DNA from: an uncultured Bacteroidia bacterium
Lineage (GTDB): Bacteria; Bacteroidota; Bacteroidia; J057; CALLMJ01
Assembly: GCA_938005475.1 (NCBI GenBank)
Contig: CALLNY010000003.1
Coordinates: 2,540 to 66,539 of the forward strand
Length of the DNA stretch: 64,000 bases
Direction of reading: 5' to 3'
Shown here: positions 1 to 63,897 of the stretch, in pieces
Layout of the letters: each line of letters opens with the position of its first letter
How positions within the stretch are numbered: position 1 is the stretch's first letter
Program-made: the position numbers and the translations under genes
The notes under the pieces: generated by a model
The model's database searches: none
What the model saw: only the letters and a program-made list of their open reading frames with translations
Told to the model about the DNA's origin: nothing

Positions 1-153
1 AATCCCGACGGAATAATTAAGCATGGCTCCAGCGGAAAAATTATATTAACCAAAAAACTAAAATCAATTTATTTAGTCCCCCAGAAATCTACCTTTGAAA
101 TTCAGGATAAAGTATTTATTTATGCTGTAAAATCTGATAGCACACTTTATTAG
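1..153 (+). pseudogene. 3' remnant of an RND efflux periplasmic adaptor (membrane-fusion protein); 5' part lies outside the window and the C-terminus is missing
   Basis: Frame 1 reads NPDGIIKHGSSGKIILTKKLKSIYLVPQKSTFEIQDKVFIYAVKSDSTLY then TAG at 151-153. This resembles the distal segment of AcrA/HlyD-type adaptors but ends roughly 50-70 aa short and abuts pump residue ~19. Confidence 0.5.
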
Positions 154-1714
154 GATTACTAGCTTTGTTTCAGTTGCCAATTACTCAATACCCAGATATT
201 GCTCCGCCAGAAGTAGATGTCACCACCAAATATACAGGAGCGAATTCAGAAACCTGTGTTAAAGCGGTTGTAACTACATTCCTACTGGCTTTATCCCCGA
301 AGAAGACCAAGGAACAATCTATGCCAATATTACTACTCCCTCCGGCGCAACCTTAGAAAGAACCGAGCAAGTCGTTGATGAAGTACAAAAAATTGCTTTT
401 AAGTTAGAAGCCGTGAATTCTGTTTCTAGTATGTCGGGATACAGTATCTTATCCGAAGGAGTGGGGGCTATCTACGGTATGAACCTTATTTCCTTAAAAA
501 ATTGGAAAGAACGTAAAGAAACTGATAAACAAATCATTGAAAAACTAGAATCATTAGTAGCTCATATTAAAGATGCTCAAATTGAATTTTTTAGACCACC
601 CCCTGTCCCCGGTTTTGGTAATTCCAGTGGTTTTGAATTAAGACTCCTAGACCAAACAGGTACTAATGATTTCACTAAATTTAAACAAGTTACCGATGAT
701 TTTATTAAAAAATTAAATGAAAGACCTGAGATTAGTAACGCTTTTACTACTTATGAGCCTAACTTTCCACAGTATTTAGTTCAGATAGATTACGACAAAG
801 CGGCTACAAATGGAATTACTGCAAAGGATGCTTTAAGCACATTACAAACCCTAATCGGTAGTGAATATACAACCAATTTTATTCGTTTCGGGCAATTATA
901 TCGCGTAATGGTACAATCCGCTCCAGAATACCGAACCAAACCCGAAGATATCTTTAAATTCTACATCAAAAATAAAGAAAGAGTTATGGTGCCTTTTTCT
1001 TCGTTCGTTACTCTAAAAAAAGTTTATGGACCTGAACAAATAACGCGTTATAATATGTACTTGTCAGCTATGGTGAAAGGGCAACCCGCAAAAGGCTACA
1101 GCTCAGGTGACGCTATTGAAGCTATTAAAGAAACCGCACAAAAGTTCCTTCCTAAAAGTTATGGTTATGACTGGGCTGGTGCTACCCGCGATGAAGCTAA
1201 TGCAGGTAATAAAGCCATTTTTATTTACTTAATCTCTCTCGTTTTTATTTATTTATTGCTTGCCGCTCAATACGAAAGTTTTAAGTTACCTTTCCCTGTT
1301 CTTTTATCTTTACCTTTCGGAGTTTTAGGAGCTTTCTTATTTTTGTGGCTTTTTGGCCTACAAAATAATATCTACGCCCAAGTTTCTTTAATTATGTTAT
1401 TCGGAATTTTAGGGAAAAATGCCATTTTGATTGTAGAATACGCAGTATTAAAACAAAATCAAGGTCTAACTCCTTACCATGCTGTTGTAGAAGCCGCAGT
1501 TGCAAGATTAAGACCTATTCTAATGACCTCTTTTGCTTTCGTTGCTGGGCTTATTCCTCTAATGATTGCTACCGGTGCCGGCGCCATCGGCAATCAAACG
1601 ATAGGCTCCGCCTCCGCTGGTGGTATGACCGTCGGTACAATTATCGGTGTGATTTTTATTCCTAGTTTATTTTTGATATTCGCTAAAAAAAATAAAAAAA
1701 GAAAAAGTTACTAA
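144..1714 (+). pseudogene. RND (AcrB/HAE1-type) efflux permease with no start codon and a ~500-codon internal deletion
   Basis: nt 144-277 encode LLGLLALFQLPITQYPDIAPPEVDVTTKYTGANSETCVKAVVT, matching AcrB ~19-64 as recalled. From nt 278 a different frame reads IPTGFIPEEDQGTIYANITTPSGATLERTEQV..., matching AcrB ~563 onward, and continues through the C-terminal half (AAQYESFKLPF, GKNAILIVEY, RLRPILMTS) to the stop at 1714. Confidence 0.8.
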
Positions 1715-1716
1715 TT

Positions 1717-3150
1717 ATGAAAAACTTAATCACTTACAAACCTTTTCACAAACTTACTCTCCTTTTAATTTGTCTTGTGTTATACAGTTGTAACTTGAAT
1801 ACAGAGCTAAATCTCTCTAAAACTCGTTTTGATAACCTTGTTCCCTTCGCTAATTCATCTAATAATATCGGACAACTTTCTTACAAAGATTTTTCCAAAG
1901 ATGAATTCCTTAATCAACTCATTGATAACGCCCTAAAAAATAATTTTGATTTGCAAATTGCTGTACAAAAATAGAAACCTTCAGAAGCCAATTCATAGCA
2001 AGTAAAGGGCTACTCTACCCTAAAACAGAACAAAATATTAGTCTCGCATTGAGAAAATATGGGCTTTACACGATGGACGGTGCCGGCAATATTACGACTT
2101 TCATTGAACCTAATAAAATTGTTCCTACTCATTTGCCTGATTTTTTGTTGGTTTTCAATCTCAATGGGAAATTGATATATGGGGAAAACTGAAAAATCAA
2201 AAAAAGCCGCTTATCAACAGTTACTAGCTTCAGAAGACGCTAAAAAATGGGTCCAAACACAACTTATTTATGCCATTGCAATCCTTTATTATGAACTTCT
2301 AAGTTTAGATTATGAAATCGAAACCGCTAATCTAACCCATGAAAAACAAAAAGATGTCCTACAAATTATTCATTATCAAAAAGATGCAGGTAAGATAAAT
2401 GAATTAGTGGTAAGCCAATTTGAAGCTCAACTTTTAGGTATTCAAATCCTAAAAAATCAACTAGAACAAAAAAGTAAAGACATAGAAAATCAAATTTTAT
2501 TTTTATGTGGTAGTTTACCTCAAAATATTCGTCGCAATAAAAATGTACTCAACCAAAATTTCAATGTAGATTTAAATATTGGAAGCTACGAACAATTCCT
2601 TCAACAAAGACCCGATATACAAGAAGCCGATAAGCTATTACAAGCCTCTCAATTTCAATGGATAGCATCAAAGAAAGCTTTTTTCCCTTCCTTGAATTTC
2701 ACTAGTTTCGCCGCATCACAAGCTTTCCGTTTAAATTTACTTTATTTGTTTCCAGCTTCCTTAGCTTATTCGTTGTTTTCTTCCTTCTCTACCCCTTTAA
2801 TTAATCGAAACAATTTAAAAGCCCTATTTTTATCTTCAAAATCTCAAGTTTTTCAATCTTTTTATTACTACCAAAAAATTGTTTATCAAGCCTATTATGA
2901 AATAGCAATTGTTTATTTCTTCCTGAATAAACAAAAAGAAATTGTAGAATTCAGCGAAAAACAGAGAGATAAACTTAATCAATCCGTAGAAATTTCTAAA
3001 GAACTTTACAAAACTGGAGAAGCAACTTATTTAGAAGTACTACTCGCTCAACAAAATGCGTTAAATGCTCAAATCAATTTGATTGAAGAAAAGAAAAAAC
3101 TTAAAATTGCAGAATGGAACCTCTACAAATGTTTAGGAGGAGGAAGATAA
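1717..3150 (+). pseudogene. Efflux outer-membrane factor lipoprotein (NodT/TolC family) broken by three 1-nt frameshifts
   Basis: Lipobox LVLYSC at the N-terminus. ORFs 1717-1974 and 2179-3150 join through two intermediate frames if one base is restored in each run: A 1967-1971, T 2141-2146, A 2199-2205. The restored text contains WEIDIWGKLKNQKKAAYQQ. The reconstructed protein is about 479 aa. Confidence 0.8.
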
Positions 3151-4902: not shown

Positions 4903-6237
4903 TCACAAAGAACCAAATATTAATCTATGTCCTTTTACACCGAAAAACTGTCCATTTTGATAGGCTATTCTTCCGTTCAGAAAAGTAGTATCTACTTCAA
5001 AATCAAAGGTTTGACCTTCAAAGGGAGACCATCTACACTTATAATATAAATTTTCTTTGCTGACCGTATGTTTTTTATTTGGATTTACTAACACCAAATC
5101 GGCATAATACCCTTCACGGATAAATCCTCTATCTACAATACGAAACAAAATTGCAGGATTGTGAGCTGTTAATTCGACCACTTTTTCAATGCTAATTTTT
5201 TGATTTTTTACTTGCTGTAACCAGAACAATAAACTATGTTGAACTAATGGACCTCCTGATGGGGCATCCAAATAAGGTAAAGATTTTTCTTCCCAAGTAT
5301 GCGGTGCATGGTCTGTTGCGGCTACATCTATAGAACCATCTAAAACCGCTCTCCATAGAACCTCTTGGTCTTCTTTCGTTTTTATTGCAGGATTCCATTT
5401 GATAAAGTTGCCTTTCGTTGTGTAATCTTGGTCATTGAAAGCCAGATGATGTATGCAAACTTCTGCAGTAATTTGCTTTTTTTCCAATGGCGTTCTATTA
5501 TCGAATAAACTAACCTCTCTTGCAGTAGAAATATGCAAAATATGTAAACGAGTTTTATATCTTTTAGCTAATGCAACGGCTTTGGAAGAAGATAAAAAAC
5601 AAGCATCAGCATTCCTAATCAAAGGATGATGAGCAGCTTTGAGCTGATTCCCAAGTTCTTGTTGTAATTTTTTTAGATTACTTTGGATAGTGGGTTCATC
5701 TTCACAATGAGTTGCAATCAACATATGGGAATTAGCGAACAGATTTTCCAAAGTTTTTTCGTTGTCAACTAATAAATTCCCTGTGGAAGAGCCCATAAAT
5801 ACTTTAATTCCACAGACGTTTGTTGGATTAGTTTTGAGCACTTCATGGAGATTATCATTAGAAGTTCCCATGTAAAAAGAATAATTAGCATAAGCTTTAT
5901 GGGAAGCGAGAAGATATTTTTGTTCGAGGAGTTCTTGGTTTAGTGTAGGCGGTTTAGTATTAGGCATATCCATAAAGGAGGTTATCCCCCCCGCAATGGC
6001 GGCTTGAGATTCCGTAGCAATATCCGCTTTGTAACTTAAACCGGGTTCACGAAAATGAACTTGGTCATCTATTAAGCCGGGTAATAACCATAAATGCTCA
6101 GCGTTGATCTCCTTAGTTTGATGTTTGACGGTAATTTCAGGAGCGATTTTTTCAATTCTTTCGTTTTTTATTAGTACGTCGCTTACGAAAGTATTTCCTT
6201 CATTAGTAATTCGTGCTTGCTTAATAAGATAGTTCAT
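4903..6237 (-). CDS. pyrC: Dihydroorotase-family cyclic amidohydrolase (444 aa)
   Basis: DDQVHFREPG metal-binding motif, DMPNTKP and ATDHAPH. ATGA overlap with the adk stop at 6234-6237. Confidence 0.75.
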   Translation of the reverse strand: MNYLIKQARITNEGNTFVSDVLIKNERIEKIAPEITVKHQTKEINAEHLWLLPGLIDDQVHFREPGLSYKADIATESQAAIAGGITSFMDMPNTKPPTLNQELLEQKYLLASHKAYANYSFYMGTSNDNLHEVLKTNPTNVCGIKVFMGSSTGNLLVDNEKTLENLFANSHMLIATHCEDEPTIQSNLKKLQQELGNQLKAAHHPLIRNADACFLSSSKAVALAKRYKTRLHILHISTAREVSLFDNRTPLEKKQITAEVCIHHLAFNDQDYTTKGNFIKWNPAIKTKEDQEVLWRAVLDGSIDVAATDHAPHTWEEKSLPYLDAPSGGPLVQHSLLFWLQQVKNQKISIEKVVELTAHNPAILFRIVDRGFIREGYYADLVLVNPNKKHTVSKENLYYKCRWSPFEGQTFDFEVDTTFLNGRIAYQNGQFFGVKGHRLIFGSL

Positions 6238-8349: not shown

Positions 8350-8444
8350 AAAAAAGCAAGAGCGATATCGCACTGCTCAACCTGGTGCCGTTGCTTCCTT
8401 CCGGACCTGGCGGAGTGACCAAGGAACTGTCGTATCGCCTTGCA
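8350..8444 (-). ncRNA. ffs: Signal recognition particle RNA (small bacterial 4.5S type)
   Basis: Minus strand reads ..CCGCCAGGUCCGGAAGGAAGCAACGGCACC.., the conserved domain IV with GGAA tetraloop. Terminal helix GCAAGGCGAUA / UAUCGCUCUUGC is followed by a U-tract. A TAATTTTG box lies 5 nt upstream of the inferred 5' end. Confidence 0.88.
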
Positions 8445-8448
8445 TCTG

Positions 8449-46146: not shown

Positions 46147-47628
46147 ATGAATCAAGAATTATATCTTTTTAATACGCTTACCCATCAAAAAGAGCTTTTT
46201 TATCCATTGAAGCCACCATTTGTCGGGCTTTATGTTTGTGGACCTACGGTTTACGGAGAGCCTCATCTTGGACATGCACGCTCTGCAATTACTTTTGATA
46301 TCGTATTTCGTTACTTAAAACACCTTGGTTATAAAGTGCGTTATGTGCGTAACATTACTGATGTTGGACATTTAGAAAGTGATGCTGATGAAGGAGAAGA
46401 TAAAATTGCTAAAAAAGCCCGTATTGAACAACTTGAACCTATGGAAGTAGCACAATTTTATACGGATGCTTATCATTTCGCTATGGATAAACTACGTGTC
46501 TTAAGACCTTCCATAGAACCTCGCGCCACTGGACATATCCCCGAACAAATCGAGATGATTGAAAAAATTCTTCAAAATGGCTTCGCCTATGTTGTAAATG
46601 GTTCTGTATACTTTGATATTCAAGCTTACAAGAAAAAATATTCTTACGGTAAACTCTCAGGACGAACAAACATAGAAGAAAATTTAGCGGTTTCCAGAGA
46701 ATTAGAGGGATTTCAAGAAAAAAGGCATCCCGAAGATTTTGCGCTATGGAAAAAAGCTAATCCTGAGCATATTATGCGATGGAAATCTCCTTGGGGTGAA
46801 GGTTTCCCCGGTTGGCATATTGAATGCTCGGCAATGTCCACGAAGTATTTAGGTTCTCCTTTTGATATTCACGGGGGCGGTTTAGATTTAATTTTCCCTC
46901 ATCATGAAGCAGAAATTGCCCAAACGAATGCTTGTGAATGTTATGACAACCCTTTAAATCAAGCTAAATACTGGCTACATTGCAACATGATTACTGTTAA
47001 TGGAAAAAAAATGGGAAAATCACTAGGCAACTTTATTACCTTGAATGAGTTTTTTTCGGGTAACCATCCTATGCTATCGCAAGCTTACTCCCCTACTACT
47101 ATACGCTTTTTTATCTTACAAGCCCATTACCGCAGTACCCTCGATTTCTCTAATGAAGCTCTTCAAGCCTCCGAAAAAGCACTAATTCGCCTTCTTCAAG
47201 GTATCCAAAAATTGGATACTATCAAATACGCTGGAACTTCGTCTTTCACTGCCTCCGAAATACAACAAAAACTTTATCAAGCTATGAACGATGACCTAAA
47301 CACCGCCAAAGTTATCGCAGAACTTTTTCATGTTATTGATAAAATTCACGCTGTTGACCTAAAACAAGAAACCCTTTCTCAACAAGAAGCAAACTCCATA
47401 AAAAAACTACTTACTACCTGGCTCGAAGATATTTTAGGGATAGTACCTGAAACCCGCACAAATGAACAATTAGAAGAAGTCATGCAAATTCTCATTGAGC
47501 TTCGTAACGAAGCAAGGGCTCAAAAAAATTATGCTCTATCGGATACTATTCGTGATAAATTGCAAGCCGTACAAATCACTTTGAGAGATACCCCTGAAGG
47601 AACTATTTGGGTGAATGGAAAAATTTAA
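46147..47628 (+). CDS. cysS: Cysteine--tRNA ligase
   Basis: HLGHARS (HIGH) and KMGKSLGN (KMSKS) class I motifs, plus WHIECSAM. Confidence 0.95.
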
Positions 47629-53328: not shown

Positions 53329-53514
53329 TTATTTTTTTTCTTCCGTAGCAGAAGTTTCCTTTTCTATTTCATTTTTTATTCCGCTGGCGGCATCTTTAAA
53401 TTCTCTTATGCCTCTACCTAAACCCCTTGCAAATTCCGGGATTCGTTTTCCCCCGAAAAATATCAGAACTACTACCAATATTAAAATAATTTCTGTTGTG
53501 CCAAGTCCAAACAT
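53329..53514 (-). CDS. tatA: Twin-arginine translocase subunit TatA/E
   Basis: 61 aa with N-terminal TM and the [21 protein letters not shown] amphipathic-helix signature. Confidence 0.9.
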
Positions 53515-63537: not shown

Positions 63538-63544
63538 ATAAAAA

Positions 63545-63892
63545 CTAAAGCGGTAAGCCGGGTTCTGTATTAGGTTATCATTTATCTAAAATGCTTTTTA
63601 CAAATACATTTTAAGCGACCTACCCACTGGCATCAGGCGAGCTACCTTCAAGCGCCAGCCTATTTGGTCTTGCGGCTTCTGAGGTTTGCCCTGTAAGTTA
63701 GTCACCTAACCTACACGTGGTCTCTTACACCACGATTTCACCCTTACCTATTCTTCATAGGCGGTATGTTTCTGTTGCACTGTCTGTTACTTAACATTGC
63801 TGATAAGCACCTTGCCGTTAGCAAGCAGAATGCTCTACGCCGCCCGGACTTTCCTCTGATAGTTCTATCTACCAGCGATAACCCCGCTTTAG
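63545..63892 (-). ncRNA. rnpB: RNase P RNA (bacterial type A)
   Basis: Minus strand contains GAGGAAAGUCCGGGCGGCG (P4 5' strand) and ACAGAACCCGGCUUACCG (P4 3' strand). P1 pairs CUAAAGCGG (63892-63884) with CCGCUUUAG (63553-63545). A TAATTTTG box lies about 5 nt upstream of the 5' end. Confidence 0.9.
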
Positions 63893-63897
63893 TACCA

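Follow-up and report, generated by a model that had tools for sequence, protein, structure and literature searches.

Remains of a tripartite RND efflux operon in the dense, AT-rich genome of an uncultivated Bacteroidota

Homologies and lesions across three efflux genes

The stretch of DNA analysed here (hereafter the window; 64,000 nt, numbered from its first base, with negative positions lying upstream) opens on its forward strand with the remains of an adaptor (membrane fusion protein) gene, an RND permease gene and an outer-membrane factor gene. Homologies were mapped by Pfam profile search and by tblastn with the proteins of nine intact loci, all of which carry the adaptor-pump pair and most of which have the outer-membrane gene next in that order. 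All nine references yielded the same break points, and every coordinate given for positions 1-1714 by a first-pass annotation of the window was upheld.

The adaptor gene starts before the first base of the window, at about -588, where it encodes a lipoprotein signal peptide (MKFLVFIGLSIFIAC), and its upstream part was read from two sibling contigs (L002 and L003) that extend beyond the window start. Just after the signal peptide, at -537 and -522, both contigs contain in-frame TAA stops; further on, at about -100, the gene has lost ~63 internal codons (residues ~170-232 of the references) and shifted frame. Homology to periplasmic adaptors, a family with the Pfam domains BSH_RND and Beta-barrel_RND, was detected by tblastn at E-values of 1e-38 and 1e-23, and residues ~228-316 (of 359-379) of the nine intact adaptors aligned to window positions -107 to 147 (E 1e-23 to 4e-27, tblastn). 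Within the window, the 3' piece of this pseudogene (1-153, corresponding to a segment of the beta-barrel) is read in frame 1 (…STFEIQDKVFIYAVKSDSTLY) as far as a TAG at 151-153. Homology ends at residue ~312-316 of 366-373, leaving 54-58 C-terminal residues missing, which bears out the earlier estimate of a frame stopping ~50-70 aa short. An intact adaptor is encoded by one unbroken frame (about 360-380 aa) and comprises a lipoyl, a beta-barrel and a membrane-proximal domain; the gene found here has two TAA codons as well as internal and C-terminal deletions.

A first deletion junction, at 141-150, connects the adaptor directly to the pump: adaptor homology in frame 1 ends at ~147, pump homology in frame 3 begins at ~144, and the two overlap by at most 10 nt. 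Approximately 236-240 nt have been lost at this point, comprising the last 54-58 adaptor codons with the stop, the spacer, and the first ~19 codons of the pump, start codon included; mapping to the nine intact operons thereby substantiated the proposal that adaptor C-terminus, spacer and pump start codon are absent. The sequence from 141 to 275 in frame 3 (HTLLGLLALFQLPITQYPDIAPPEVDVTTKYTGANSETCVKAVVT) is an N-terminal pump fragment without a start codon, covering residues ~20-63 (from late TM1 into the first periplasmic loop), where residues ~19-64 had been read previously. It matches positions 20-64 of Pfam ACR_tran (E 7.4e-11), and residues 31-63 of the nine references map to 177-275 with 70-83% identity.

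At a second deletion junction (275-278) the pump homology passes from frame 3 to frame 2 with the loss of ~1.48 kb (pump codons 64 to ~558). The left-hand homology ends at Thr63 (codon 273-275) and the right-hand homology starts at 272-278, such that the two overlap by 3 nt or fewer. What follows is the C-terminal half of the pump (263-1714, frame 2, with homology from ~272), which comprises the second periplasmic loop and TM8-12, lacks TM7 and a native start, and remains open for 483 codons, with GTG at 413 as its first start codon. This frame matches ACR_tran 551-1020 from 272-278 to 1704 (E 1.6e-127), aligns with AcrB 562-1034 and MexB 561-1026, and corresponds, from 266-278 to 1704, to residues 556-566 to the end of the nine intact pumps of Bacteroidota and Methylomonas. 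The pump matches in both frames lie well outside what chance would produce. The jump near nt 275 into another frame, equivalent to AcrB ~563 onward, had thus been placed correctly, as had the disappearance of some 500 pump codons; about 493-500 are absent between the two pieces, and the helices missing are TM2-7. Unequal recombination between the two homologous halves of the pump was considered as a source of the 1.48 kb deletion and rejected, given that the break points at residues 63 and ~558 are not equivalent and that the frame changes.

The pump remnant therefore has ACR_tran (PF00873) homology of the RND permease, HAE1 kind; an intact member would encode about 1000-1050 aa in one ORF and have 12 TM helices plus two large loops in the periplasm, whereas the remnant consists of two pieces in different frames without a start codon. 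In the window haplotype the TM10 Lys (GKNAILIVE) and TM11 Arg (RLRPILMTS) motifs are retained. The set of proton-relay residues (in AcrB numbering the Asp-Asp pair D407/D408 of TM4, Lys K940 of TM10 and Arg R971 of TM11) is incomplete, the TM4 region having been deleted. Starting just after TM7, the C-terminal half would also lack a preceding transmembrane helix with which to export its periplasmic loop.

The third gene (1717-3150) encodes a TolC-like outer-membrane lipoprotein and is a full-length pseudogene whose homology, by Pfam OEP and tblastn, runs through frames 1, 3, 2 and back to 1. A 323-aa piece matches Pfam OEP (PF02321; E 3e-18), and the tblastn matches are spread over three frames. 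Three -1 frameshifts account for this: an A5 run at 1967-1971 (presumably A6 originally) that creates a TAG at 1972-1974, a T6 run at 2141-2146 (presumably T7), and an A7 run at 2199-2205 (presumably A8) that returns the sequence to frame 1. All three are slips in A/T homopolymers within 240 nt of one another and sum to -3, the original frame resuming at 2206. Full-length homology in a single ORF is recovered only upon three single-base repairs: adding one base to each homopolymer restores a protein of 478 aa, residues 48-477 of which align with the outer-membrane factor of Leadbetterella at 44% identity (E 8e-124). The first-pass annotation had described every gene of the 64 kb outside the adaptor and pump as intact; this does not apply to the outer-membrane factor gene, which belongs to the same operon.

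The same annotation had attributed the loss of adaptor and pump to two large deletions. Both exist, at ~141-150 and ~275-278, but fixed lesions in the operon number at least eight, namely three large deletions, two nonsense codons and three -1 homopolymer frameshifts. The large deletions span ~190, ~240 and ~1480 nt, and together have removed roughly 1.9 of 5.7 kb; these sizes, like the ancestral homopolymer lengths, were inferred from distant references, the closest intact pump being only 68% identical.

Sibling haplotypes and polymorphism

Four sibling contigs were obtained as those encoding members of the same 90% protein cluster as the 433-aa ORF of the C-terminal pump half. They derive from two ENA metagenome assemblies (ERZ6863697 and ERZ6863929) and from Logan assemblies of ERR9287890 and ERR9287625. 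An exact look-up of the 433-aa ORF returned no record, an exact 29-mer of the N-terminal pump fragment had no match among JGI metagenome contigs, and a literature search on the sample accessions found nothing. The four contigs are 99.93-100% identical to the window and have every junction and frameshift in common with it, the five sequences resolving into four near-clonal haplotypes across samples.

Direct comparison of these haplotypes revealed six variable sites in the 11.7 kb compared, five of which fall inside the 3.15 kb remnant (binomial P = 0.0065, from small counts). Two are homopolymer-length differences, which in principle could be sequencing errors: an A7 run at 1015-1021 is A6 in L002 and L003, so that the pump remnant falls into two ORFs (203-209 aa and 219 aa), and a T6 run at 2679-2684 is T7 in the same two contigs, splitting the 323-aa outer-membrane ORF. 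The remaining changes within the remnant are K>I at 969, K>E at 1415 in haplotype L003, affecting the lysine of GKNAILIVE (which the alignment offset equates with AcrB K940), and a silent substitution at 1803. Outside the remnant a single site varies, with V>I at 5514 in an amidohydrolase gene (4903-6237). The description of the C-terminal pump half as an open frame with conserved motifs consequently holds for the window haplotype, with its 483 codons, TM10 Lys and TM11 Arg, whereas in two haplotypes the frame has already shifted.

Since all of the data are metagenome assemblies, the operon might in reality be intact, with the deletions representing contig collapses and the frameshifts homopolymer errors. 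Consistent with such an artefact, two assemblies of one sample (L001 and L004) break at the same base, -493, the Logan graph breaks near 2450 too, and the small lesions of the outer-membrane gene all lie in homopolymers. Against it, both junctions and the three frameshifts recur in contigs from four metagenome datasets and two assembly pipelines, and the overlaps of at most 3 nt at junction 2 and at most 10 nt at junction 1 offer no k-mer-length repeat on which to collapse. Assembly collapse is very unlikely because the junctions are shared by four datasets and neither coincides with a repeat. Homopolymer error is likewise not common in the assembly, given that 314 A/T runs of at least 6 nt elsewhere in the window lie within uninterrupted ORFs, and the two in-frame TAA codons of the adaptor are substitutions rather than indels. 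We therefore regard an artefactual origin of the lesions as having a very slim chance of being correct.

Several contigs end within the remnant: L001 and L004 both begin at -493, inside the adaptor, while L004 ends at 2462 and L095 at ~2446. The breaks at -493 and near 2450 (Logan, ERR9287625) may reflect strain heterogeneity or low coverage.

The location of the three outer-membrane lesions and of both polymorphic indels in A/T runs could also be read as phase variation, in which the tracts switch the gene on and off, or as a gene rescued by transcriptional slippage that restores the frame, rather than as a pseudogene. Such a mechanism would need three separate tracts, each short at 5-7 nt, to be corrected simultaneously, yet the three 'off' lengths are identical in all four haplotypes, and the cognate pump and adaptor have been destroyed. 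The probability of a switchable outer-membrane gene is accordingly vanishingly small.

Age of inactivation and constraint on the surviving frames

From the open frame of the C-terminal pump half, inactivation had been proposed to be recent. This does not find support in the present data. With eight random lesions placed in ~3.65 kb, a lesion-free stretch of 1.43 kb is expected with P ~0.17, such that the open frame of 483 codons needs no selective explanation and is no proof of recent inactivation. Furthermore, the window remnant departs from the consensus at 4 of 83 invariant columns (homolog mean 0.25) and at 17 of the 203 columns with at least 90% conservation (homologs: mean 4.8, maximum 15), placing it above almost all of 113 homologs in its deviation at conserved positions. 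Part of this excess may reflect a long, AT-biased branch. With eight or more lesions and this deviation at conserved columns, inactivation was probably not very recent.

These observations also bear on whether the surviving frames are expressed and useful, with selection keeping the 483-codon frame open and the 433-aa C-terminal half serving as a half-transporter, alongside the 323-aa outer-membrane piece. The frame is long for a genome of 34% GC, its TM10 and TM11 motifs are conserved, and RND pumps consist of two mutually homologous halves. However, the frame has no native start, and the absence of TM7 would leave the periplasmic loop without an export signal; it is broken in L002 and L003, and in L003 the essential TM10 Lys has been replaced. 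Adding to this the chance expectation of a lesion-free 1.43 kb, the excess of change at conserved columns and the death of both partner genes, we judge a retained function of these frames to be very improbable. Scarcely more credible is the version in which the C-terminal RND frame, perhaps with the 323-aa outer-membrane frame, is still translated in the window haplotype and retained by selection, with some activity or cost, or the related reading of the locus as a rare case of an operon caught in stepwise loss, in a population of free-living and streamlined Bacteroidota; we consider both distinctly unlikely.

Genomic context and intact relatives

The host of the remnant is an uncultivated member of the Bacteroidota with an AT-rich (34% GC), gene-dense genome. 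Its placement follows from type IX secretion markers in the window (Por_Secre_tail and a PorV-like protein) and from a TGT that is 65-67% identical to those of Sphingobacteriaceae. Across the remaining 61 kb, ORFs cover 94.6% of the sequence, and the 58 other ORFs of at least 80 aa display near-complete profile coverage wherever Pfam matches were obtained; within the 64 kb, decay is thus confined to the efflux operon, as had been suggested. The largest non-coding gaps contain no gene remnants, and correspond to a small SRP RNA (8350-8446, reverse strand) and a class A RNase P RNA (63538-63895, reverse strand), each with a full-length Rfam match, and to a tatA-like ORF of 61 aa (53329-53514, reverse strand), which occupies the largest apparent gap and is shorter than the 80-aa ORF cut-off. 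In both GC and GC3 the remnant matches the remainder of the window, and recent horizontal acquisition followed by decay was rejected as a recent event on these grounds.

We also sought an intact orthologous locus in sister lineages through the flanking GT22 and TGT genes. None was found, nor was any RND remnant detected near GT22 or TGT in sister-lineage stretches of 2-21 kb. These lineages (L085-L093) share 73-82% nucleotide identity with the window, and 90-92% (TGT) and 75-78% (GT22) amino-acid identity. Gene order around TGT and GT22 is scrambled among them, a striking degree of rearrangement for such compact genomes; in L091, for example, no more than 6 kb separates homologs of the genes found in the window at 46147, 61766 and 3771.

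In a scan of species-representative genomes, the best intact pump homologs were 68% identical or less, and were found mostly in Bacteroidota together with Methylomonas and Methylococcaceae; a collection of 5.8 billion proteins contained no pump between 68% and 100% identity. The closest intact homologs (68%) include those of gammaproteobacterial methanotrophs, namely Methylomonas rivi WSC-6 (L019), in which no outer-membrane gene is adjacent, and a Methylococcaceae MAG (L007). The similarity of these sequences suggests a possible cross-phylum transfer of the adaptor-pump pair.

Decay of the operon and comparison with known systems

Taken together, these findings make it very probable that window positions 1-3150 and ~590 nt upstream are what is left of an HAE1-type tripartite efflux operon (adaptor, RND permease and outer-membrane factor) and no longer function. 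The homologies and the lesion map, read directly from the DNA, reveal a homolog of intact genes disrupted by truncation, frameshift and nonsense, which is what defines a pseudogene. We infer from the sequence that no surviving piece could make a working part, because the pump is missing its start codon, TM2-7 (and with them the proton-relay aspartates of TM4) and most of the first periplasmic loop, and because early interruptions affect both the adaptor and the outer-membrane factor.

Selection on the efflux system would have been lost first, and the operon would have decayed since then through the usual bacterial mutation spectrum: large deletions, nonsense codons just past the lipoprotein signal peptide of the adaptor, and -1 slippage in the A/T homopolymers of the outer-membrane gene. 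Slippage or illegitimate recombination would be the mutational mechanisms underlying these changes, acting under presumably relaxed selection. Decay may well be ongoing, to judge from sibling haplotypes with additional frameshifts and a substitution of the TM10 lysine.

For annotation purposes, the 433-aa ORF, which databases list as an ACR_tran protein, and the 323-aa OEP ORF are pseudogene fragments, and should not be counted here as a working efflux system or resistance determinant. The operon represents ordinary gene loss, a textbook deletion-biased pseudogene cluster that descends from an AcrAB-TolC-like HAE1 operon. While the locus bears on no open question, it provides a tidy, polymorphic case of deletion-biased operon loss in a dense genome, and one data point for indel spectra.

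Compared with HAE1 operons of the AcrAB-TolC / MexAB-OprM type in their Bacteroidota arrangement, as in Leadbetterella sp. DM7 (L022), the relic has the same gene order. Identity to the pumps of intact operons is 65-68% in the C-terminal half and 70-83% for residues 31-63; the adaptor reaches 40-54% and the outer-membrane factor, once repaired, 44%. The relic has likewise kept lipoprotein signal peptides and, in the pump, the TM10 Lys and TM11 Arg motifs. Unlike these operons, about a third of the relic has been deleted and every gene is interrupted, with the pump start, TM2-7 and most of the first periplasmic loop gone.

Deletion-biased decay of pseudogenes is established for bacteria (Kuo & Ochman, PMC2817411 and PMC2916853; Danneels et al., PMC6054270). 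The relic resembles such pseudogenes in its 7 to 1 ratio of deletions to insertions (fixed and polymorphic indels together), in its large deletions and homopolymer slippage, and in a polymorphism above that of flanking genes. The classic cases are, by contrast, host-restricted genomes with many pseudogenes, whereas the loss described here is isolated, within a surrounding 61 kb that is dense and intact.
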